From the NCBI GenBank assembly GCA_902499925.1, contig GCA_902499925.1_4130.1: a stretch of 64,000 nt of DNA; one strand, written 5' to 3'. The position numbers were made by a program, and so were the translations under genes. Below are positions 14,711 through 62,118 of this stretch, piece after piece. Every line of letters begins with the position of its first letter. Positions within the stretch are counted from its first letter, which is position 1. A model generated the notes under the pieces. It worked only from the letters and a program-made list of their open reading frames with translations, made no database searches and was not told the origin of the DNA. The DNA is from Escherichia coli. GTDB lineage: Bacteria; Pseudomonadota; Gammaproteobacteria; Enterobacterales; Enterobacteriaceae.

Positions 14711-14970
14711 TTTATTACCTCTATATCTACATCTGTGCCATAGTAGGAAACGTAACCATTATCTGAATTACATTGAATTGATAACTCTGATTCATAGTAT
14801 GTTACTTTGAACACTGTTAGAACTTTTTCATCAATTTTTCCCGTTAAATAATCCATTTCACGAACACGAACTTTGGTTCCTTTTGGGAGTTCTTGTGCAA
14901 TTTTATTAACAAGTTCAAAAGCAGCTTCTTCAAGTGTGTGCAACAATTGCAATCTATCTTGGATATTCAT
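14707..14970 (-). CDS. small hypothetical protein (loose family D)
   Basis: Track ORF 14707..15015 trimmed to internal Met (MNIQDR); PKGTKVRVREMD segment. Confidence 0.4.
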   Translation of the reverse strand: MNIQDRLQLLHTLEEAAFELVNKIAQELPKGTKVRVREMDYLTGKIDEKVLTVFKVTYYESELSIQCNSDNGYVSYYGTDVDIEVIK

Positions 14971-14971
14971 A

Positions 14972-15661
14972 TTATTTCCACCAAGTTGTATCACGACCAC
15001 CAGACAAAGATTCATTGTACTGATGTCTGAAATTAGTATTTGGATTATTTGTCATTGTACTAATAAAATCAAATTTAACATTCTCTTGAATGTAATTAAT
15101 AACATTATCTTTAAATTTAATAGTACTGAAGTCTAAATCTAAATGTTCATACAATACAGGATGACAAAACTCATGTGTACGCAATGATGGCATGGTATCC
15201 TTAATGTATTGCACAGTGTTAATCATTGCATTGTACTCAGGCATAGCACGCATCATCATTAGCTGAAAGTGTTCTTCCTCTGACATTGACTCATCCAAAT
15301 CAATAACTACTTCATCATTTTTAGAGTCATATACTTTAATGGAACTCTTTGTTGGATCAAGCATAGCCCACTCTGGATACAGGCATGTTTTCCAAAAAGG
15401 ATTATTGCACTGAAACATACTAATGAGATTTTGATTTTTATCAAAAATAGCAAATCCAAGATCCGAACTTGGCTGTACTTCACATACACAAATATCATAA
15501 GGGGAGTCTTCAGTACTGAATGAACCAACTACATTTGATATATGTGAATATGGAGTTTCTCTTGATTTTAATTCAAAGGCTCTCTCCATACGATTAACCT
15601 GTGGTTGTAATGTAATTACACCCCTCAGTACATATAAAATTCTATCTAAATCTTTAATCAA
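14972..15661 (-). CDS. hypothetical protein
   Basis: 229-aa ORF. Confidence 0.5.
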   Translation of the reverse strand: MIKDLDRILYVLRGVITLQPQVNRMERAFELKSRETPYSHISNVVGSFSTEDSPYDICVCEVQPSSDLGFAIFDKNQNLISMFQCNNPFWKTCLYPEWAMLDPTKSSIKVYDSKNDEVVIDLDESMSEEEHFQLMMMRAMPEYNAMINTVQYIKDTMPSLRTHEFCHPVLYEHLDLDFSTIKFKDNVINYIQENVKFDFISTMTNNPNTNFRHQYNESLSGGRDTTWWK

Positions 15662-22540: not shown

Positions 22541-23137
22541 TTATAGACAGTTAAGTACTATGTCATCAAAAGTACTACTGTCAATGTTGTATTCATATAA
22601 AAATTTAAAATGTGATCCATAACGCATCATCAGATTAAACTCTTCTTCAGTATTAAATTTGTAATCATGAAGAGTTTCAAGGGTACATGTTAAACCTAAA
22701 AACTCAATAATTTCTGATGTTACATCATTTCCTGAATTGAAGTATTTAACCCAAACACATTTTCCTTGTGGGTTGAATTTTCTATATTCTCCTTCTAGTT
22801 CTCCATTGACGATATGTGCTTTCGCACTGATTAGATTATTACTATAACGCTCTTCGTAGTAGTTCCCATAACGAGCTTTAAGAATTGTAGGCTTCTTGGT
22901 TGGGAATAACTTAATGGAAGTTAATTCAAAACCGCACTGCAACTCTTTGATGTACGAAATACATCCCTTTTCTTTAATCACAACAAAACCAGTAAAATTC
23001 TCTTGGTCTTGGTTCTGATTGTCTGAATCAACAAATTCTAGTGTTTTATAAGTGACGCTTTTAGATTTTTTAATAAATGACATCATTATTCCTATGGAAA
23101 CATCAATGACTGTACATGGCGTTGACTTCATCAACAC
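22541..23137 (-). CDS. hypothetical protein
   Basis: 198-aa ORF. Confidence 0.5.
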   Translation of the reverse strand: MLMKSTPCTVIDVSIGIMMSFIKKSKSVTYKTLEFVDSDNQNQDQENFTGFVVIKEKGCISYIKELQCGFELTSIKLFPTKKPTILKARYGNYYEERYSNNLISAKAHIVNGELEGEYRKFNPQGKCVWVKYFNSGNDVTSEIIEFLGLTCTLETLHDYKFNTEEEFNLMMRYGSHFKFLYEYNIDSSTFDDIVLNCL

Positions 23138-23704
23138 CAGTCGAATTATACACGCTTCGCATGTCTAATTCAACGAAAGTACTATGATTTGTTTTAATTA
23201 ATATTGACGGGGTTTGCTTGAGCATATTTCATCCCCCCGCAGGGGAAAGAACAAAAAAAGTTTGACGCTGGTGGCCTTCACATAGTTCATATCACGAATT
23301 CTCTTACGAGGCGAAAGCGGGTTGCTCTGTTTCTCTCTATCGCGGTTCTTGTAGCAACGGTCGTCGGTCTTAAACATCCCGACACATAATACAAATACCA
23401 TATGACCAGTACTTGTATTTGATTTCACGAATTTTGGACGCAACTATATTGTATAAATTACGACCGCAAATTTCTCATGAAATCTCCCTTAGATAATTGG
23501 TAAGGTGCGATCCTTATATGTCTATCGAGGAACTCTCTTTATCCTATTGGAGTTCTTTATACAGCCGCATTGCCGTGAGTGGTTCAAACTATGCCATCAT
23601 CTAACGGGTTTCATTTGCTGTTCGTACTGAAAGGACTACTCATCTACCCTCTACTTTTCGAGTGGATTAGGCTTTAATCATTTCCATATGGAACCTTTCA
23701 GGAT

Positions 23705-23735
23705 TAAAAAAGGCGACAACATATTCTGCTGTCAC
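23705..23735 (-). terminator. rho-independent terminator candidate
   Basis: Minus-sense GGUGACAGCA-gaauau-GUUGUCGCC (9-bp stem, 2 GU) followed by UUUUUU, ~30 nt after stop of 23767..24615. Confidence 0.55.
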
Positions 23736-23766
23736 CTTACATTATATCATAAACTTATGGTATGTC

Positions 23767-24615
23767 TCAGTTGTATTCTGTTTTTTCAGTGAAATTAGTT
23801 AAGATATCTGCACTTAAGCTTCTCATAACCTCAATCTTACTTGGCATGAATCTGTGCTTGTTTTTTACATACAACTCGTCATCTTCAATGAAAGATGTGA
23901 ACATGAATACCATATCTTCACGTGGGATTGAGAGAATATTACAGTTTTCATTTTCAGCAACAGGGGAATCATTGTAGTACTTAGAGAATGCAGTACTTTG
24001 ACGACCGATTATGATAGAATTACGGATTAGAAAATTACTACAGTACTGAAAATCTTTGTAGTACTTGTCAAGGATATATGGCATTATCGCTTCTTTCACT
24101 TCTTCATATCCATTGGTACTATCAATTTCAGTACAATAATCTTCTCGGTCTTTATTCCCTCGATGATTATCAAACTCGTACTCAAAGAATAAATTTTCAT
24201 TTAATGAATTATTTGAACCAACTGATCCACTATAGTATGATTTTCTATCATTCATTCGATCATCGGGGCATGATGCATACATAGAAATGTCATGTGTTGA
24301 CGTACCGATATAAATTTTCTTAGTAATGTGATTGTACGCGATGTAATCATAATCTTGTACTCCAGTGAGCATTAACTGGAACATCAATTCATCAGGAACA
24401 TCAATCAACGGGTACTCAAACTTCGAATATCTACTACGACAGAAATTCTTTTCAAATGCTCGATATGCGATGAAATCTTTTAGGTTTGTAATAGATTCAT
24501 GCTCATGTGTATTACTGGTGCGTACATTGACATTAGTAGACGAGCAATACCCTTCAGATTCTTCTGCGTAGTCATAATAACCCTTACTGTAGTCAACGAT
24601 TAGATAAAGTTTCAT
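23767..24615 (-). CDS. hypothetical protein
   Basis: 282-aa ORF. Confidence 0.5.
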   Translation of the reverse strand: MKLYLIVDYSKGYYDYAEESEGYCSSTNVNVRTSNTHEHESITNLKDFIAYRAFEKNFCRSRYSKFEYPLIDVPDELMFQLMLTGVQDYDYIAYNHITKKIYIGTSTHDISMYASCPDDRMNDRKSYYSGSVGSNNSLNENLFFEYEFDNHRGNKDREDYCTEIDSTNGYEEVKEAIMPYILDKYYKDFQYCSNFLIRNSIIIGRQSTAFSKYYNDSPVAENENCNILSIPREDMVFMFTSFIEDDELYVKNKHRFMPSKIEVMRSLSADILTNFTEKTEYN

Positions 24616-55880: not shown

Positions 55881-56121
55881 ATTTCTCTTTATTAGCTTGT
55901 TTGGTTTTATAGTGAATTAAATCTATTAATGTAATCAAGTACAACTTCAAAAAGTACTCTTGATGGTTCGTACCTAATGATACAAAGAACTTATGCTCAT
56001 AAATCAAAACCTGTTTCACTTCAAAGGGACACTTAATCCTCTGTATAGGTTTAAGTAAATGATAGTACTTATTAAATCTATGATACATTTCTAGTTCTGT
56101 CAGTACTTTCATATTAAACAA
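55870..56121 (-). CDS. paralog family B member
   Basis: LGTNHQEYFLKLYL. Confidence 0.55.
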   Translation of the reverse strand: MFNMKVLTELEMYHRFNKYYHLLKPIQRIKCPFEVKQVLIYEHKFFVSLGTNHQEYFLKLYLITLIDLIHYKTKQANKEKYEN

Positions 56122-56335
56122 TCACTCCATTAGCTGTAGCATCACGTAAAGCTCTCAAATACTTCTGTACTGCTTGCTCTTGCTTATTTGTACCTAAAAG
56201 TATATACATCCATAATTCACTGTAATGTACATCTTGTGTATAAGGGTTGTTGTAACTTTTTGATAATATAGCATCAAATTCAGATGCATGAACCCTTGTG
56301 AACTTAAGAATATCTTGTTGTGTTATGATTCTCAT
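56114..56335 (-). CDS. paralog family B member
   Basis: LGTNKQEQAVQKYL. Confidence 0.55.
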   Translation of the reverse strand: MRIITQQDILKFTRVHASEFDAILSKSYNNPYTQDVHYSELWMYILLGTNKQEQAVQKYLRALRDATANGVIV

Positions 56336-56547
56336 ATCTTTTCCTGTACTATCTGTATAAGAATCCCTATGTGTGAATTAACAGTTCTCTCTTGATGCTG
56401 TGTTCCTAAGAGTGTCAGTACTATCATCTCTGAACGCAAAAGATTTTTCTGAAGTTCACTTATATCAGTCCTCATATCAAGATTCAGAAATTCTTGACTA
56501 TTTTTTCTGAATAGTGCCAAGTACTCTTGATTTGATATTTCCTTCAT
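56332..56547 (-). CDS. paralog family B member
   Basis: LGTQHQERTVNSHI. Confidence 0.55.
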   Translation of the reverse strand: MKEISNQEYLALFRKNSQEFLNLDMRTDISELQKNLLRSEMIVLTLLGTQHQERTVNSHIGILIQIVQEKI

Positions 56548-56774
56548 AGTTTATCCCTGATGCCATTTAAAAGTGCTCTAATATGCTCCTGTACGAATTT
56601 GTACTGACTGTCTGTTCCTAGAGTGAGTAGCAATCTTAAATCTGAACTTTTGATGTGATATTCTAAATCATTATTTGATTCTTGCATCAGTTTCTTAAAG
56701 GATGAGAAGTTTGCAGCCATTAGTTCAATGTATTCTGCTGTTCCTAGTGGTTTGTGTATTGGCTGTTTGTGCAT
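56544..56774 (-). CDS. paralog family B member
   Basis: LGTDSQYKFVQEHI. Confidence 0.55.
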   Translation of the reverse strand: MHKQPIHKPLGTAEYIELMAANFSSFKKLMQESNNDLEYHIKSSDLRLLLTLGTDSQYKFVQEHIRALLNGIRDKL

Positions 56775-56986
56775 TTTAATTTTATTACCCTTTTGAGTGT
56801 ATTAATGTAATTATACACATTGGCTTCTTGATAGTTAGTTCCCAGTGTAGCTTGAACATAGATTTCATTTAACTTAATAATTTTATCAGTATCTGGTAGT
56901 TTTGATGTGTTAATGGCAAATAACTTCAAAAACAGTCCATTTAAGATTGTTAGGTATTCTTCGTCGGTAATGATTCGCATTTGCAT
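56744..56986 (-). CDS. paralog family B member
   Basis: LGTNYQEANVYNYI. Confidence 0.6.
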   Translation of the reverse strand: MQMRIITDEEYLTILNGLFLKLFAINTSKLPDTDKIIKLNEIYVQATLGTNYQEANVYNYINTLKRVIKLKCTNSQYTNH

Positions 56987-57192
56987 TGGATAAACCTTTT
57001 TAGTTCTTTGATGTAATCATTAATATTGCATTCTTGATAGTTAGTCCCTAGGGTAGCTTGAACATAGATTTCACTCATTAGAATATTTTTTTCTTCATCA
57101 GGTAAATCTGTGGTCTTTGCTATATACAATTTTAGAATTAAACTACTTAATAGTTCGTGGTATTCACTTGGTGAAAGGATTTTCATTTGCAT
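56950..57192 (-). CDS. paralog family B member
   Basis: LGTNYQECNINDYI; near-duplicate of 56744..56986 at DNA level. Confidence 0.6.
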   Translation of the reverse strand: MQMKILSPSEYHELLSSLILKLYIAKTTDLPDEEKNILMSEIYVQATLGTNYQECNINDYIKELKRFIQCKCESLPTKNT

Positions 57193-57398
57193 GTTCTCAG
57201 TACAGATTCTTTAAGTTCATCGATGTAGTCCTCAACGAATTGCTCTTGGAAGTTAGTTCCAATATATAAAAGAACTCTTAAATCTGCTCTAAGTAACTCT
57301 TTTTCATCATCATCTATATCAGACAATGTTATGTTTAAGAATTTACTTGTATTAAAGATTAACAATTCTGTTTGTTCACTGTGGCTTAAAATTTTCAT
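57183..57398 (-). CDS. paralog family B member
   Basis: IGTNFQEQFVEDYI. Confidence 0.55.
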   Translation of the reverse strand: MKILSHSEQTELLIFNTSKFLNITLSDIDDDEKELLRADLRVLLYIGTNFQEQFVEDYIDELKESVLRTCK

Positions 57399-57606
57399 AA
57401 TCTCTTTTTGCTTTCCTCGACAGTAGGTACAAATACGATTCTTCGTATTGTGCTTGGAAGTTTGTGTTTAAGAGTCGAAACAACTTCTGTTCTTCTAGAA
57501 CGAGTTGCTTATCTTCATAACAACGGTAGCGTATCAACTTTTTGTATTCGATGTTGATTACATCCATTACTATAAGCCCATGTTCATCATCTGTCAAGTG
57601 CTTCAT
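57376..57606 (-). CDS. paralog family B member
   Basis: LNTNFQAQYEESYL. Confidence 0.5.
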   Translation of the reverse strand: MKHLTDDEHGLIVMDVINIEYKKLIRYRCYEDKQLVLEEQKLFRLLNTNFQAQYEESYLYLLSRKAKRDYENFKPQ

Positions 57607-57845
57607 GCTTTTTTTCTTTTCCTGATGTGTTTAGTTAAAAGGTATATTAGTTTTCTGATGTATTCTTCCTGATAGTTTGTTCCTAATAGTGCAAGAAGTT
57701 TTGCTTCAACTAAAGCTAATTGACGTTCTTCAAATGTGTGTTCCAGTATGTACTTTGGGTTTGATTTTTTAGAAATTGCACTATTAGTTTTCATTACAAT
57801 CTTATGATATTCATTAACTGTTAGGATTTTTAAATTCTTGAGCAT
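57603..57845 (-). CDS. paralog family B member
   Basis: LGTNYQEEYIRKLI. Confidence 0.55.
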   Translation of the reverse strand: MLKNLKILTVNEYHKIVMKTNSAISKKSNPKYILEHTFEERQLALVEAKLLALLGTNYQEEYIRKLIYLLTKHIRKRKKA

Positions 57846-58071
57846 GTACCTTTTCCTTTATAGAGAATTTAAGATATCGAAGCATACTTTCAATGTAATA
57901 CTCTTGTCTGTCAGTTCCAAGAAAGTACAGGAGTTGAATGTATAAAACTTCTGCACTCCTTTCGGCATGTGACTTGTTTGTGTCGTTTGGAAGTTGATTT
58001 GTAAGTTTTCTGGATTTAATTAATCGTTCTTTTAACTCATCGTCTGTTAAGTATTTCATTTGCATTTGCAT
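57814..58071 (-). CDS. paralog family B member
   Basis: LGTDRQEYYIESML. Confidence 0.55.
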   Translation of the reverse strand: MQMQMKYLTDDELKERLIKSRKLTNQLPNDTNKSHAERSAEVLYIQLLYFLGTDRQEYYIESMLRYLKFSIKEKVHAQEFKNPNS

Positions 58072-58297
58072 TTACTTTTTCCTTAATAGTGATTTTAAGA
58101 TATCTAATCATACGTGCAACATATTCCTCTTGTCTATCAGTTCCCAGAAGATATGGTAGTGATTGGAATAATACTTCTGCACTCCTTTCTGCTGGGGTTT
58201 GGTTTAGGTCAATTGGACGTTTATTGGTATATCTCTTGGCACGAACTAATCTCTCGACGTATTCATTATAGGTTAAGTATATCATTTCATTTTGCAT
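58037..58297 (-). CDS. paralog family B member
   Basis: LGTDRQEEYVARMI; twin of 57814..58071. Confidence 0.55.
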   Translation of the reverse strand: MQNEMIYLTYNEYVERLVRAKRYTNKRPIDLNQTPAERSAEVLFQSLPYLLGTDRQEEYVARMIRYLKITIKEKVNANANEILNRR

Positions 58298-58533
58298 TTA
58301 ATGTTTCTTACGTAAATTGTCTGGATTAAACAATCAATCCAAGTTTGAATATATTGGTTTTGATACTGTGTGCCTAAGAGACTCTGCATTTTAAACTCTG
58401 CTTCAAGTTCATATCTCTTTTCTATAGAAAAGCTCAAATGACCATATTCTTTATCGTATCTTCTCAGTGCTTCCCCAATTCTATCAAATCTTTCTGCTAA
58501 TCTGATGTTATTCACAATATTCATCGCATTCAT
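58282..58533 (-). CDS. paralog family B member
   Basis: LGTQYQNQYIQTWI. Confidence 0.55.
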   Translation of the reverse strand: MNAMNIVNNIRLAERFDRIGEALRRYDKEYGHLSFSIEKRYELEAEFKMQSLLGTQYQNQYIQTWIDCLIQTIYVRNIKCKMK

Positions 58534-58808
58534 CGATCAGTACACCTCAGTGGTTGGGTCATTTGATGAAAGTACAGCTTACCTCTGATTTCCAGTAGTA
58601 ACTCCGCGATTAAGCGATTTACTTCTGTATCTTGATAGTTTGTTCCTAAGAATACACCCATCTTTAACTCACGCATCATAATCATTTTCTTACTGTGTTG
58701 AATTTCTGGGTTGTGATAGATTGTATTACGTTTGTGCGTAATTTTTGTCATACGCTCGGTATATTCATCTTTACTTAAATTAATCATTTTTATTCTCCAA
58801 AGCATCAC
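58530..58808 (-). CDS. paralog family B member
   Basis: LGTNYQDTEVNRLI. Confidence 0.55.
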   Translation of the reverse strand: MMLWRIKMINLSKDEYTERMTKITHKRNTIYHNPEIQHSKKMIMMRELKMGVFLGTNYQDTEVNRLIAELLLEIRGKLYFHQMTQPLRCTDR

Positions 58809-59019
58809 ATTTATTTTCGATACAAATCATTAGTTCTCTAAGATAGTTTTTTATCTTACCTTCCTGATGGTTCGTCCCCAGGAAGTTGCATAACTCTGCT
58901 TCTATTATTTTGATTCTTCTGGTGTCAGGTTTCAATTTTTTGTTATTGAAGATTTGAATCCTTATATCCCTTGATGCATTTAAACGTTTTTGATATTCAT
59001 GGAAAGATAAATTAATCAT
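58780..59019 (-). CDS. paralog family B member
   Basis: LGTNHQEGKIKNYL. Confidence 0.55.
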   Translation of the reverse strand: MINLSFHEYQKRLNASRDIRIQIFNNKKLKPDTRRIKIIEAELCNFLGTNHQEGKIKNYLRELMICIENKCDALENKND

Positions 59020-59234
59020 TTACTTTGTATCTCTCTCTTGAGGGCATCAATTAACAACAGTACAGCATTCTCTTGATAGTTTGTTCCTAAGACTGAAAGC
59101 ATCTTAATCTCATTTACTACAATCAACTTCTTTGAGCGTTCAATAATGTTACTATTATAAACGGCGTTACGTGCTGGATAAGTTTTTGCAAGACGAACAT
59201 AATATTCATCTTTACTTAAATTAATCATTTGCAT
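59016..59234 (-). CDS. paralog family B member
   Basis: LGTNYQENAVLLLI. Confidence 0.55.
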   Translation of the reverse strand: MQMINLSKDEYYVRLAKTYPARNAVYNSNIIERSKKLIVVNEIKMLSVLGTNYQENAVLLLIDALKREIQSK

Positions 59235-59443
59235 TTACTTTGGATCTCCTTGACTAATGCATCAACCCACATGTCTATATACATTTGTTGATAGTTTGTC
59301 CCTATGAGTGCCCCTGCATAGAGTTCAGCTACCATTGCATGTTTTAGGTTGGCAGGGATGCTCTTATCAGATTGAATCTTTACTCTTCTGTTGGCACATG
59401 TTTTCAGAAGCTTAACATATTCGTAACCTATTAATTTTCTCAT
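59225..59443 (-). CDS. paralog family B member
   Basis: IGTNYQQMYIDMWV. Confidence 0.55.
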   Translation of the reverse strand: MRKLIGYEYVKLLKTCANRRVKIQSDKSIPANLKHAMVAELYAGALIGTNYQQMYIDMWVDALVKEIQSKCK

Positions 59444-59655
59444 TCTTTTGATATCACCTTGTTACGTAAGGCACTTAACAATACGTCAGTGTAGATGTTT
59501 TGATAGTTTGTTCCTACGAATACACCCAACTTCATTTCAGCTATTATAACACATTTGTCCTCTTGTGCAATAGACTTGTCTAAAGAAATACTAACAACTT
59601 TCCTTCTTATAGCTTGTAACCTCCAATGATACTGATACTCATTTAGGGTTATCAT
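59440..59655 (-). CDS. paralog family B member
   Basis: VGTNYQNIYTDVLL. Confidence 0.55.
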   Translation of the reverse strand: MITLNEYQYHWRLQAIRRKVVSISLDKSIAQEDKCVIIAEMKLGVFVGTNYQNIYTDVLLSALRNKVISKE

Positions 59656-59890
59656 TCTCTCGCCTCCATTTCTCGGTTCTAATGTGTTGACATTGTGCTT
59701 CGATGAACATATCTATTGATTTGGCAATTGCTTTTTTATCTGTGCCTGTCATCAGTACAAGCATCTCGGCCTCACAGTGAAGTAAACGCATGATATCATA
59801 GGGTAATATTCCAGATACCGTGTCATAGTGTTTCTGTGCCAGTGTCTGTAATAGTTTACAATACATTTTGTGATTTAGTCTGTGTCGCAT
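59639..59890 (-). CDS. paralog family B-like (divergent)
   Basis: TGTDKKAIAKSIDMFI. Confidence 0.45.
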   Translation of the reverse strand: MRHRLNHKMYCKLLQTLAQKHYDTVSGILPYDIMRLLHCEAEMLVLMTGTDKKAIAKSIDMFIEAQCQHIRTEKWRRENDNPK

Positions 59891-60147
59891 TGTTTATTCC
59901 ATTCTTTTTTGGCCTTGATGGTTTTATATTGGATTTGGTTTCTTAATGCTGATAAGTATCGTTGAATGAACAGATCTTGATAGTTTGTTCCAATGAATTT
60001 CATCAGATAAAGTTCACCGTTGATAACATCCACTTCAGGTGCACCATATAAGGCATTGTTTTTTCTAAGGGTATGGATTAAAGAGAATAGGGCAGTTTGA
60101 TACTCAACTCCTGATAAAGTCTTCATGTTTTGTGAGCCAATAATCAT
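59875..60147 (-). CDS. paralog family B member
   Basis: IGTNYQDLFIQRYL. Confidence 0.55.
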   Translation of the reverse strand: MIIGSQNMKTLSGVEYQTALFSLIHTLRKNNALYGAPEVDVINGELYLMKFIGTNYQDLFIQRYLSALRNQIQYKTIKAKKEWNKQCDTD

Positions 60148-60361
60148 CTAGTTTATCCTGTATAACATTCATTAATTGTTCGACATATTCTGTGCAAAAC
60201 TTATCTTGATATTGAGTCCCCATAAAGTACAACAACCATAGCTCATTAACTTTAGCTCGCATTTGGTTCCATGTAAGGCTGGGGTCATCGTAGACTATCC
60301 TTGCTATAGGGGTTAGTTTACGGACTATAGTTTCATATTCATCTAGTGTTAAGTGTTTCAT
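60104..60361 (-). CDS. paralog family B member
   Basis: MGTQYQDKFCTEYV. Confidence 0.55.
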   Translation of the reverse strand: MKHLTLDEYETIVRKLTPIARIVYDDPSLTWNQMRAKVNELWLLYFMGTQYQDKFCTEYVEQLMNVIQDKLDDYWLTKHEDFIRS

Positions 60362-60576
60362 TTACATTTGTCCCTTATTAGATCAGTGAGGGCAACTATG
60401 TGTGCAACAACATACTCTTCCTGAAAGTTCGTCCCCAGTACAGCCATCATGCGTATATCGGTGGTGTTTATCCTGTGTTCCCTTACACATAAACCTTCTG
60501 TGTGAGGAAGTGTAAAATATTTGTTTATTGCAGCAACGATAATTTTATTCTTCTCGGAGTTACTTAAATGTTTCAT
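60358..60576 (-). CDS. paralog family B member
   Basis: LGTNFQEEYVVAHI. Confidence 0.55.
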   Translation of the reverse strand: MKHLSNSEKNKIIVAAINKYFTLPHTEGLCVREHRINTTDIRMMAVLGTNFQEEYVVAHIVALTDLIRDKCK

Positions 60577-60785
60577 AGTTTGCTCTTAATGTATTTCTGG
60601 AGTGCAATTATATACTCATTCAAGAAATGCTCCTGATAGTCTGTGCCGAGGAATGCACCCAATAGTATATCATTTTCCAATACTAATGCTAAGTTTAAAT
60701 CATCAGTCTCTTCATATACTATGAGAATTTCAAGTTGTCTGGCAGCGACGCGTTCGGTATATAGATTTGAGTTAATGCTATTCAT
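60573..60785 (-). CDS. paralog family B member
   Basis: LGTDYQEHFLNEYIIALQKYIKSKL. Confidence 0.55.
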   Translation of the reverse strand: MNSINSNLYTERVAARQLEILIVYEETDDLNLALVLENDILLGAFLGTDYQEHFLNEYIIALQKYIKSKL

Positions 60786-60994
60786 AGTTTACTCTTAATG
60801 TAATTCTGGAGTGCAATTAAGTATTCCCCTACATAATACACCTGAAAGTCTGTATCCAAAAATGCACCCATAAGTAAATCTTTTTCTAATACCCTTGATA
60901 AGTTAAGGTCTGCATTTGAAAGGTATATAAGTAAGATTTCACCCTGTGCGGAATTGAAACGTTTCTTATATTCTTCTGGTGTTAAAAAAATCAT
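60782..60994 (-). CDS. paralog family B member
   Basis: LDTDFQVYYVGEYLIALQNYIKSKL; twin of 60573..60785. Confidence 0.55.
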   Translation of the reverse strand: MIFLTPEEYKKRFNSAQGEILLIYLSNADLNLSRVLEKDLLMGAFLDTDFQVYYVGEYLIALQNYIKSKL

Positions 60995-61200
60995 AGTTTC
61001 CTCTTAATATCTTCTATTAAAAATCGAATCCAATCGTCAACATACTCTTCCTGATGGTTTGTGTTCAGTACAGCCAACATGCGGATCTCTGCTCTTGCAA
61101 CTTCAATTGCAGTTTTAGGAAGGTCTTTTCTGATATCCAACATTAAGTCCATGTATCTCAAGATAAGACCGTATGATTGGGTTCGTGTTATAGTTTTCAT
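60991..61200 (-). CDS. paralog family B member
   Basis: LNTNHQEEYVDDWI. Confidence 0.5.
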   Translation of the reverse strand: MKTITRTQSYGLILRYMDLMLDIRKDLPKTAIEVARAEIRMLAVLNTNHQEEYVDDWIRFLIEDIKRKL

Positions 61201-61397
61201 TGTTTCCTCGTGGATAATATTTCATTTTTCAATGCATCCATATATTGAATCACCCATCTTCCCTGATAGCTTGTTCCCAATGTAATCAAAAGGTATAACT
61301 CAATTCGTTCTAAGTTTGTGTCTGTGTTATAAATCTTTACCATGTTTTTACGTAACAGTTCTTGATAATCTTCTTTATTTAAAATACGCATTTTCAT
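61197..61397 (-). CDS. paralog family B member
   Basis: LGTSYQGRWVIQYM. Confidence 0.5.
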   Translation of the reverse strand: MKMRILNKEDYQELLRKNMVKIYNTDTNLERIELYLLITLGTSYQGRWVIQYMDALKNEILSTRKQ

Positions 61398-61591
61398 AGT
61401 CTACCTTTTATGTCCCTTCGTAATTCTTGTAAGTATAGTTCGATATACTTTTCTTGATAGTTAGTTCCTATGAAAAGTTTCATAACCAATTCACGCTTAT
61501 ATGCAATACCACGGATATGTGACATATGTAGGATATATGCCATGTTGGATATGAGTGTGTGGTTGTGCTCTTCTTGAGTTAAAATACGCAT
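61394..61591 (-). CDS. paralog family B member (first gene of the tandem array in transcription order)
   Basis: IGTNYQEKYIELYL; track ORF 61394..61621 trimmed to internal Met (MRILTQ) preceded by GGAG. Confidence 0.55.
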   Translation of the reverse strand: MRILTQEEHNHTLISNMAYILHMSHIRGIAYKRELVMKLFIGTNYQEKYIELYLQELRRDIKGRL

Positions 61592-61619
61592 AGGGACTCC
61601 ATTAAAAATAATATCAATC

Positions 61620-61650
61620 ATATAATATACAATTCATATAAAAAGTCAAT
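61620..61650 (-). promoter_or_regulatory. sigma70-like promoter candidate upstream of family B array
   Basis: Minus-sense TTGACT-~16nt-TATTAT/ATATTA with TG upstream; approximate. Confidence 0.4.
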
Positions 61651-61840
61651 AACATTTTATTAGTAATACCCCTTTATCGAAGTCGCTAAGGTTACCCGCC
61701 CTTTAGCCCCCTACGCATTTTGCCATAGTCCAATCCCTTTTTATTCATAAAAGTCAAGGGATTACCTATGCATTTTTTTAACGCTGAAATTTAAAAATGC
61801 CTTGACTTTTTTATGATTCAGTACTAAATCCTTTTACGCA

Positions 61841-62050
61841 TTAATCCTTCGTTACGCTTACGATTATCTGTGTATCCCCATAGTCCTGCCATACTTCCAC
61901 GCCAGCCGCCGCCCTGGTTAGTCGTGCTGTCATCTGCTTAATGGTCTTAGGCTTTAGTGGAACCTGTTGCAGTACTGTACGCATAGCACTATCGACGTTA
62001 TCATGTACGCCTGCAATAGTGCCTAGAACGTTGTATACTGTATAGATCAT
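61841..62050 (-). CDS. hypothetical protein
   Basis: 69-aa ORF in GC-richer early-type block. Confidence 0.45.
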   Translation of the reverse strand: MIYTVYNVLGTIAGVHDNVDSAMRTVLQQVPLKPKTIKQMTARLTRAAAGVEVWQDYGDTQIIVSVTKD

Positions 62051-62118
62051 GTGTATGTACTCCTGATATAGTTAAGGCCGCTAGAGAGCGGCCTATGATG
62101 TTTGATGATGTGTAACGC

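Follow-up and report, generated by a model that had tools for sequence, protein, structure and literature searches.

What is encoded in the stretch at positions 23138–23766 of this 64,000-nt piece of Escherichia coli contig GCA_902499925.1_4130.1 ("the window" below means all 64 kb), for which a first-pass annotation saw no convincing open reading frame (ORF) and considered a structured small RNA, a replication origin or regulatory elements, or the remnant of a mobile insertion? The window is part of a jumbo coliphage of the 121Q/PBECO4 type (genus Asteriusvirus), and the ORF-poor stretch between the minus-strand ORFs 22541..23137 and 23767..24615 is real. On the evidence of base-pair covariation, its minus strand is the gene for a multiply pseudoknotted non-coding RNA of ~450 nt. 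Of the suggested structured small RNA, the structure is strongly supported by compensatory changes, but the size is not: the predicted RNA comprises ~450 nt or more, is pseudoknotted, and occurs in multiple copies.

This assignment is carried by an alignment of 34 diverse homologues (alignment A2), from which the helices were derived and on which they were scored. In the 109-pair model, 93.9% of pair cells are standard pairs (37–43% in slid controls) and the covariation score amounts to 0.457 (0.06–0.08 in slid controls). The covariation check against related phages that the first-pass annotation had recommended came out clearly, with double-sided compensatory changes at 84 of the 109 pairs versus 28–36 in the slid controls; none of 500 column shuffles reached any of the observed measures, and single pairs in the model show up to five pair types. 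In the alignment of the paralogues, invariant blocks alternate with stems bearing obvious compensatory changes. Covariation and mutual-information scans delineate a core of ~415 nt (23287..23701, minus strand) with ~20 helices and five pseudoknots, namely PK1 to PK4, which are of the loop-to-strand or strand-to-strand type, and, close to the 3’ end, a compact double pseudoknot whose strands follow the order Pi, Pj, Pk, Pi’, Pk’, Pl, Pj’ (Table 1). In several stems, G-U pairs occur whose opposite-strand counterparts would be A-C mismatches, and the single-sequence fold z-score is −2.59 for the minus strand versus −1.15 for the plus strand; the RNA is therefore assigned to the window minus strand, its core running from 23701 to 23287. 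Invariant unpaired stretches in the RNA read GACCGU, ACCCGC, GAUAGA, CGGCAAU, and AAGGGAG, and variation is concentrated in peripheral domains (the P6 insert, P9, and the Pl extension). Compensatory changes, strand-specific G-U pairs, and conservation above that of the flanking genes, features generic to structured non-coding RNAs, are all found here.

The same alignments bear on the possibility that the region encodes a small basic protein, either the 81-aa ORF that the first-pass annotation had put forward as a potential explanation of the region or another short ORF, with conservation acting at the protein level. About 10 homologues do contain stop-free runs of 75–97 codons on the same strand. 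However, in all homologues except the two closest Asteriusvirus copies the frame of the 81-aa ORF runs into in-phase stops within 1–41 codons, and outside the closest relatives it is shifted repeatedly by indels, at several landmarks. Substitutions track base-pairing, not codon structure, and a Pfam search with the 81-aa ORF gave no match. The chance of a protein being the conserved product is negligible in our estimate, and we regard a protein-coding reading of the gap as effectively excluded.

The non-coding stretch extends beyond the originally delimited interval. Since the downstream gene most likely starts at ATG 23086, a codon preceded by an AGGA ribosome-binding site, whereas the mechanical ORF call begins at GTG 23137, the true gap begins at 23087 and spans 23087–23766 (~680 nt). 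Several first-pass observations on its composition were borne out: GC content is raised (41.6% over 23202–23701 versus 33.6% for the whole window, with a peak of 46% in 23200–23399), both of the quoted GC-rich strings were found (at 23341 and 23233), and ARAGORN, in line with the failure to spot tRNA signatures, predicted no tRNA or tmRNA gene in the entire 64-kb window. The description as the longest gap in the window depends on the ORF cut-off; it applies at a cut-off of at least 60 aa, where the gap is the longest internal ORF-free stretch, but not at one of at least 100 aa, where three regions of the window exceed it, the largest being a block of small genes. At 55881–62118, the window contains ~6 kb without an ORF of at least 100 aa, apparently an array of many very small genes; comparable runs of small genes, with 60–80-aa genes annotated, are present in 121Q at 131–162 kb. 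In GenBank records, the RNA locus is either unannotated or overlaid by spurious hypothetical proteins, and some relatives are annotated with a longer form of the downstream gene, or with extra small ORFs, over the RNA locus.

Conservation of the region is, as judged from sequence comparison, far from chance. Identity amounts to 99.6% with Escherichia phage EC.P1 and to 91–95% with 121Q, G17, and phAPEC6. In 121Q, the gap alone is 94.8% identical versus 91.5% for the query including the flanks, and the gap is therefore better conserved than the flanking genes. About 480–550 nt of the gap can be aligned at ~70% identity in distant Rak2-like genera, with matches in GAP32, CBB, Serratia BF, Yersinia fHe-Yen9-04, Salmonella Munch/7t3, and phages named for Erwinia and Xanthomonas. 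Homologues were collected by motif scans of IMG/VR, GTDB genomes, and Joint Genome Institute (JGI) metagenomes and confirmed by nhmmer, giving 152 matches (108 full length, 74 non-redundant); the motif patterns as such, both the first loose one for IMG/VR and the one for genome contigs, mostly hit by chance, and only 3 of more than 120 genome matches were real. Apart from the bacterial island copies described below, the long contigs with matches are jumbo-phage genomes of ~350–380 kb, while many matches lie on shorter contigs or fragments for which the genomic context could not be judged.

The RNA appears to be equipped with a promoter of its own. P1 scores 10 of 12 consensus matches and carries the TG extension, with a predicted transcription start at ~23734–23736, and the arrangement TG(A/G)AAC-N12-TGgTATAAT is present at a fixed distance upstream in 62 of the 74 non-redundant homologues. 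It matches the class of ‘divergent RpoD-like’ promoters described for CBB and also for GAP32, which in CBB consist of a −35 TGAAACG and a −10 TATA element and mostly lie upstream of DNA-synthesis genes (PMC5259590). P1 may thus be a functional promoter of a middle, activator-dependent type. The hairpin that had been taken for a minus-strand terminator closing the region is real, as is its T-run, but it sits at the 5’ end of the predicted RNA, just after the RNA’s own promoter. A stable hairpin directly after the −10 box is also present in many homologues, and this element probably has two roles, terminating transcription of the upstream 282-aa gene and stabilizing the RNA at its 5’ end.

Downstream of the core follows a 3’ module consisting of a first direct repeat (DR1), the GC-rich hairpin X, and a second direct repeat (DR2). 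In the window copy, DR1 is succeeded by a T7 run (23253–23259). Most paralogues have a terminator hairpin, T1, between DR1 and the T-run (helix 22, supported by covariation where present), but T1 is absent from the window copy and from its paralogue class in all genera; in the most divergent paralogue class the terminator stem (GUCAGA...UCUGAC) makes use of DR1, and the remaining classes have a separate terminator or none. Hairpin X (helix 23), which on the plus strand is the GC-rich string ccccccgcagggg quoted in the first pass, is 95.6% paired in A2, its sole variation being C-to-U (G-U), and G511–G515 are invariant. DR1 and DR2 change in concert at four positions. At the site 7 nt upstream of GTCA, the two repeats have T/T in 47 and C/C in 27 sequences, with not a single exception among the 74 non-redundant sequences; CG is replaced with TG in both repeats in three sequences (L084, L098, and L340), the C being invariant otherwise; and in Klebsiella phage RaK2 the change of CGTCA to CTTCA and a C-to-G change each affect both repeats. 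Paralogues within one genome differ at the variable positions, and the identity constraint is therefore local to each locus. No covarying partner for DR1 or DR2 was detected in the RNA core across the 74 sequences. Beyond DR2, equivalent hairpins with CGAAGUGA-type loops recur in other paralogue classes, genera, and islands, with compensatory changes visible by eye. The tail hairpins of the window copy overlap a sigma-70-like promoter for the next gene, and the tail may be either the leader of that gene or part of the RNA unit.

RaK2 itself contains far more diverged copies of the element (nhmmer E 1e-40 and 1e-32; L274:1730-2231 and L294:4368-4868), in which both direct repeats read CTTCAAG rather than CGTCAR; these copies are useful as outgroups for structure modelling.

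Every Rak2-like genome that we examined harbors four to five paralogues of the element, all co-oriented and 60–84 kb apart, distances that correspond to about one fifth of the genome; the spacing seen in GAP32 is nearly identical in BF, CBB, and a metagenomic genome of 371 kb. The four paralogues of 121Q, with 70–73% mutual identity, share one orientation, that of the window minus strand; within the 64-kb window, neither blastn nor nhmmer found a second copy. Co-orientation was seen in all genomes checked and extends to copies within an inverted gene block (class C). Two paralogue classes were checked for synteny, and both are syntenic across genera. In class A, a gp416-family gene is always next downstream; in CBB, fHe-Yen9-04, and metagenomic jumbo phages, the window’s paralogue class has this gene behind it. 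Class C copies (121Q, GAP32, CBB, and others) are located within an oppositely oriented gene block and face a convergent gene, with a bidirectional terminator ~165 nt downstream of the unit; there is therefore no co-oriented ORF for them to regulate, which led us to reject a cis-regulatory leader that would always precede a co-oriented ORF. Small conserved ‘ORFs’ downstream of class C proved to be antisense artefacts of the convergent gene. As a side observation on 121Q, ~2 kb between gp265 and gp266 (135194–137161; L004:35195-37160) lack an annotated gene, the largest unannotated gap noticed there, which shows no homology to the RNA unit.

Table 1. Features in and around the gap and positions of the paralogues in related phage genomes. 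Window coordinates apply unless a genome is named.
Feature	Position	Strand	Remarks
Promoter P1 (predicted)	23741..23769	(−)	TGAGAC box 23769–23764, spacer, extended −10 TGATATAAT 23749–23741
5’ hairpin GGUGACAGC...GUUGUCGCC + U-run	23704..23738	(−)	terminator-like in scan; stem 23738–23710, then T-run
PK1	23701–23694 with 23634–23627	(−)	
P2	23693–23682	(−)	
P3	23670–23644	(−)	loop GAAAAGUA
P4	23639–23624	(−)	
P5	23621–23617 with 23565–23561	(−)	
P6	23607–23573	(−)	
PK2	23570–23568 with 23520–23518	(−)	
P7	23555–23530	(−)	
PK3	23544–23542 with 23493–23491	(−)	
P8	23516–23501	(−)	
P9	23484–23421	(−)	variable domain
P10	23418–23389	(−)	
PK4	23405–23400 with 23292–23287	(−)	
P11	23383–23363	(−)	
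Pi	23358–23354 with 23325–23321	(−)	
Pj	23344–23340 with 23297–23293	(−)	
Pk	23337–23333 with 23317–23313	(−)	
Pl	23310–23301	(−)	
DR1 ACCAGCGTCAA	23262..23272	(−)	from alignments; family consensus AYC-N(1-2)-CGTCAR
GC hairpin X, UUCUUUCCCC-UGC-GGGGGGAUGAA	23228..23251	(−)	CCCC/GGGGGG hairpin; G-run nearly invariant
DR2 ACCCCGTCAA	23204..23213	(−)	identical to DR1 at variable positions
Conserved non-coding tail	23122..23203	(−)	promoter-like in scan, recurring hairpins
AT-rich stretch	~23175–23203	(−)	AT 77% in first 30–40 nt after DR2 versus 64% background
Hairpin H-A ACAUGCGAAGCGUGU	inside 23173–23145	(−)	inside sigma-70-like TTGAAT-17-TATAAT
Hairpin GUUGAUGAAGUCAAC	23136–23122	(−)	
81-aa basic ORF	23198..23443	(−)	spurious; frame broken by indels; no Pfam match
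Downstream gene, 181 aa, 121Q gp416 family	22541..23086	(−)	end-to-end PHROG 16210 match from ATG 23086
Upstream gene, 282 aa, 121Q gp415 family	23767..24615	(−)	PHROG 15199 match; annotated in G17 and 121Q
Copy in 121Q	~90.3 kb		after sigma-factor gene
Copy in 121Q	192.8 kb		orthologue of window copy
Copy in 121Q	247.5 kb		
Copy in 121Q	326.7 kb		inside block of minus-strand genes
Copies in GAP32	~35, 99, 177, 261, 341 kb		
Copies in Serratia BF	~30, 93, 174, 259, 335 kb		
Copies in CBB	~32, 94, 174, 258, 336 kb		
Copies in a 371-kb metagenomic genome	~21, 106, 187, 251, 311 kb		

The unit has also been captured by integrative islands in bacterial chromosomes. When 5,426 complete E. coli genomes were searched by blastn, the element was detected in two strains, LR-29-1 and EEC_W5, in both cases within the same ~10.7-kb island, which is inserted between ffs and ybaA (NZ_AP027515.1 ~3473213–3483557 in LR-29-1, L369:7959-18303; L370 for EEC_W5). 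Its RNA unit is intact (~L369:11890-12545), comprising a TGGGAT-box promoter, the 5’ hairpin, the core, DR1, a terminator, hairpin X, and DR2, and is closest to the class C copy of Serratia phage BF (80.6% identity). Phages and islands share the RNA unit only (~0.55 kb by blastn), and the proteins flanking the E. coli island copy have no jumbo-phage homologues. The cargo comprises a tyrosine integrase split by IS3, several uncharacterized proteins, a resolvase, a DUF2188 protein, and a DuOB/DUF488/mSLOG-DUF4326 trio that matches the PADLOC candidate system PDC-M45. About 450 nt downstream of this RNA unit, in a 0.7-kb non-coding stretch, lies a GATC-rich cluster of palindromic and tandem repeats (ATTATCGATCGTT twice plus an inverted copy; L369:12972-13023) that looks iteron- or operator-like.

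Three further copies were identified in GTDB genomes. In Silvania hatchlandensis H19S6 (L238:1-8000), a large serine recombinase comes first, followed by the RNA unit, the convergent gene of a CI/LexA-type S24 repressor, an uncharacterized 286-aa protein, and LprI in that order; a Buttiauxella metagenome-assembled genome (MAG; L155:1-8000) contains the same cargo, but with a tyrosine integrase; and an Enterobacteriaceae MAG (L186:5350-8000) has the RNA unit and the convergent repressor, adjoining thiM/thiD. In this second type of island, the cargo is paired with integrases of different families in two of the three loci, and two of the three also have a perfect palindrome, TCCCTATAAATATC-GGTA-GATATTTATAGGGA, immediately ahead of the RNA promoter. 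The GTDB island copies retain the TGAAAC-box promoter, the helices, both repeats, and the downstream hairpins, and the preserved promoter box suggests that the island RNA may be switched on by an infecting jumbo phage. Plasmids gave no match to the element.

Does the RNA belong to a known family? Rfam 15, with families such as group I and II introns, RNase P, HEARO/omega RNA, GOLLD, ROOL, OLE, raiA, riboswitches, and 6S, gave no matches in the window at gathering thresholds, and when hits up to an E value of 10 were allowed for 22900–24000 and 12 homologous loci, only scattered terminator-like and small-RNA noise was seen, none of it inside the core or recurring across loci; the scan for known structured RNAs that the first-pass annotation had advised hence matched no family. 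A description of the element was found neither in the literature on jumbo-phage non-coding RNAs or on GOLLD/ROOL-like RNAs in jumbo phages nor, at the keyword level, in accounts including those of phAPEC6 and fEgEco12, and it is absent from the CBB paper, the PA5oct omics study, a comparative overview of jumbo phages, and a phage RNA survey with 10,000 candidates. We take it to be a new kind of element, an RNA family absent from Rfam and not found in the literature. Pseudomonas phage PA5oct, a distant relative, has two highly expressed, RNA-seq-supported non-coding RNAs of 236 and 451 nt in its terminal repeat, ncRNA001 and ncRNA002 (PMC7318152); nhmmer found no similarity to them (L295:1264-1499 and 14952-15402), and they were rejected as relatives.

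Several known systems nonetheless offer partial parallels. ROOL and GOLLD RNAs (RF03087, RF01998) are likewise longer than 400 nt, rich in helices and pseudoknots, and encoded by phages as stand-alone non-coding RNA genes. They differ in that they have no sequence or structure match to the present RNA and come from Firmicutes and lake metagenomes, where a single copy is usual and tRNAs are often close by, whereas the present family occurs in Rak2-like phages of Enterobacterales with four to five evenly spaced copies, a 3’ repeat module, and island capture; for a comparison with ROOL/GOLLD-like cages, which assemble through intermolecular kissing loops, covariation cannot separate intramolecular from homo-oligomeric pairing. 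ColE1 RNA II is comparable as a self-contained mobile non-coding unit of ~0.6–0.8 kb with a promoter ~0.5 kb before the transition zone, a structured RNA of ~500 nt, a G-run/C-run near the RNA 3’ region, and hairpins downstream. The corresponding features of the present unit (promoter, ~480-nt transcript region, invariant G5–6 run in hairpin X) are to be taken as resemblances only; RNA II, in contrast, has no known pseudoknotted, sequence-invariant core, and in the present family a terminator precedes the G-run in most copies. No equivalent of antisense RNA I turned up in the present unit, although no search was aimed at it. With T4 oriF (uvsY) and oriG (gene 34), the family shares several origins or origin-like loci per genome and a middle-mode, activator-dependent promoter, predicted in the present family, with a transcript that would act in cis. 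T4 origin fragments on plasmids are replicated upon infection, which parallels the island capture of the RNA unit. Yet T4 origins are short, consisting of a promoter and a DNA-unwinding element of ~50 bp, are not mutually homologous, and need no RNA structure, whereas here the AT enrichment is modest (77% versus 64%) and lies ~500 nt away from the promoter, and the RNA is elaborate and conserved. HK022 put and Bacillus EAR resemble the unit as promoter-proximal structured RNAs followed by terminators, with several copies heading long co-directional gene arrays, but put measures ~70 nt and EAR ~120 nt as opposed to more than 400 nt here, neither is homologous, and class C copies have nothing downstream to antiterminate. 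The P4 CI and P1/P7 c4 systems, finally, combine a cis-encoded structured RNA with two identical short direct repeats on one transcript in phages, satellites, or integrative elements, beside repressor or integrase genes. Their RNAs, though, are tRNA-like, have ~70–80 nt, and lie between the target repeats, while here both repeats are 3’ of a 415-nt core, and the repeats could not be shown to be complementary to a stretch of the RNA.

What, then, might the unit do? Taken as a whole, the gap is in our opinion best explained as a self-contained non-coding unit for a new structured-RNA family that acts at or near its own locus, an explanation we consider rather probable without being confident of it. 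Host RNA polymerase would transcribe the unit from the phage middle-like promoter (TGAAAC box plus extended −10); the transcript would begin with the protective 5’ hairpin and would either end at the T-run or terminator after DR1 or read through the 3’ module; and the folded RNA, as our best guess, would serve at or near its locus as a genome landmark. More specifically, the unit may be a replication origin for which this transcript provides the primer or R-loop RNA, by analogy to ColE1 RNA II or T4 oriF/oriG, although we put this forward as a tentative idea that is more probably wrong than right. Counted in its favor are the self-contained unit, the G-run hairpin, the AT-rich stretch, the downstream hairpins, and the locus-identical repeats, and, further, that the islands show no replication genes of their own and yet captured exactly this unit. 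Even, co-oriented copies, the middle-like promoter, and island capture lend circumstantial support to an origin or regulatory role. That the five even, co-oriented units are origins or another chromosome-scale cis landmark, of which islands captured a ~0.8-kb unit, seems to us conceivable yet doubtful. A number of points weigh against action of the unit as a local landmark or origin. Transcription, RNA ends, and any function are all inferred. The structure model was scored on the alignment from which it came, though such circularity cannot produce double-sided changes at 84 pairs. The chance of the observed evenness of spacing for five random points is ~0.002, but this test was picked after viewing the data and covers a single evolutionary observation, since the genomes have this synteny in common. 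Cumulative GC skew in 121Q, suggested in the first pass as a check for an origin, follows gene orientation and has no inflection at the four copies, which is weak evidence because T4-like phages are not expected to show a skew switch. The only candidate complement of the repeats is a GAYGA just 5’ of each; of the two tail hairpins proposed on this basis, Pm is unsupported on A2 (58.8% paired), and Pm’ is 92.4% paired, neither with compensatory changes. The identity of the repeats is non-contiguous (AYC, then 1–2 variable nucleotides, then CGTCAR), and simple annealing of the RNA tail to downstream DNA is therefore not a full explanation. In most copies, an intrinsic terminator intervenes between the core and the proposed initiation zone. 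Moreover, a primer RNA in which five pseudoknots are combined with invariant nucleotides at the junctions would be without known precedent; such features are typical of ribozymes, riboswitches, and ribonucleoprotein RNAs, which favors a trans-acting or a ligand- or protein-binding role.

An ornate trans-acting RNA, which would be abundant, stable, and transcribed independently, would work at a distance from its gene, and could function as a ribozyme, as a scaffold for a ribonucleoprotein, as a sponge or decoy, or by ROOL/GOLLD-like self-assembly, is indeed about equal to the origin in our assessment, in other words a possibility with less than even prospects; the four to five paralogues would then provide dosage, specialized variants, or a hetero-oligomer. 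Its own promoter and 5’ hairpin, a canonical terminator right after the core in most copies, a tertiary-looking architecture with invariant unpaired stretches and loop-to-strand pseudoknots, mostly peripheral variation (P6 insert, P9, Pl extension), and the lack of a downstream gene in class C would all suit such an RNA, and a copy in an island could interfere as a dominant-negative decoy; PDC-M45, a candidate defense system, is part of the cargo of the E. coli island. Action in trans, however, leaves unexplained the even spacing and the uniform orientation maintained even against local gene direction, the ~250 nt conserved beyond the terminator, the concerted evolution of DR1 and DR2, and why the checked paralogues stay at their own syntenic loci, neither lost nor homogenized. 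We are more skeptical of co-transcriptional control, either by an antitermination RNA of the HK022 put or Bacillus EAR kind or by a very large riboswitch- or attenuator-like switch, which would decide whether polymerase from P1 stops after the core or enters the next ~70 kb of genes, and in islands whether it reads through into the convergent CI-like repressor gene. The order promoter, structured RNA, terminator would fit, as would the several copies ahead of different gene blocks and the convergence of the unit with a CI/LexA-type repressor gene in three islands; one paralogue class builds its terminator stem from DR1, making the structures mutually exclusive, and the DR1, DR2, and GAYGA segments could conceivably form two alternative pairing schemes. 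An RNA with an identical target repeat on either side has precedents in P4 CI and P1 c4 RNAs. Control of this type is at odds, though, with class C, where a bidirectional terminator follows after ~165 nt and no co-oriented gene is downstream, with an element that exceeds all known put, EAR, and riboswitch RNAs several-fold in size, and with repeats that have no covarying partner in the core and whose Pm and Pm’ helices are not backed by covariation; we hold it to be rather unlikely.

Least compatible with the data among the non-coding alternatives is a degenerate or ORF-less mobile element or intron (group I or II, IStron, IS200/IS605 with omega RNA, miniature inverted-repeat transposable element) whose repeats would be target-site duplications. 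Multiple dispersed copies, short direct repeats flanking a hairpin-containing segment, the presence of the unit in unrelated bacterial islands, and the commonness of homing endonuclease genes in these phages could speak for it. The notion of a mobile-insertion remnant in the first pass nevertheless conflicts with an intact element that is subject to purifying selection; in both paralogue classes checked, its copies are not polymorphic but are orthologues at syntenic positions in different genera. A group I intron was rejected as every copy is intergenic with its own promoter, not within a host gene, and the helix order is unlike group I: only 9 nt separate the first two strands of the 3’ pseudoknot, and there is therefore no equivalent of P4-P6 between the P3- and P7-like strands. 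No group I/II, HEARO, or other Rfam model scored even at an E value of 10. A TnpB/IscB omega-RNA element was likewise dismissed, the flanking genes coding for unrelated hypothetical proteins; the three 121Q proteins with an endonuclease or HNH endonuclease annotation were scanned with Pfam and contain neither TnpB or IscB nor a reverse transcriptase, their domains being CapR, metallopeptidase/VWA, and zinc-finger domains, not the RuvC or HNH domains of TnpB/IscB. The repeats, finally, are actively kept identical, unlike relic duplications. With a probability that we rate as very low, a mobile-element relic is effectively excluded.

Large RNAs with such conserved tertiary-type structure are rare, and nearly all known so far are ribozymes, riboswitches, ribonucleoprotein cores, or open puzzles (OLE, GOLLD, ROOL, raiA). 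As the present RNA sits in cultivable E. coli phages (121Q, PBECO4, G17, phAPEC6, and relatives), it is directly amenable to experiments. On the practical side, many GenBank records carry these loci unannotated or with spurious ‘hypothetical protein’ calls. The presence of four to five anciently diverged, regularly placed, and co-oriented paralogues points to a role on the scale of the chromosome, in replication, transcription domains, or genome organization. If the units were replication origins, they would constitute an origin type without a described counterpart, defined by a ribozyme-like pseudoknotted primer or R-loop RNA, and the unit in the islands would let an infecting jumbo phage replicate or induce them, as with a satellite, or would poison phage replication as a decoy defense. 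The module has been captured by islands beside integrases, CI-like repressors, and candidate defense genes, which suggests a previously unseen interaction of satellites or defense islands with jumbo phages.

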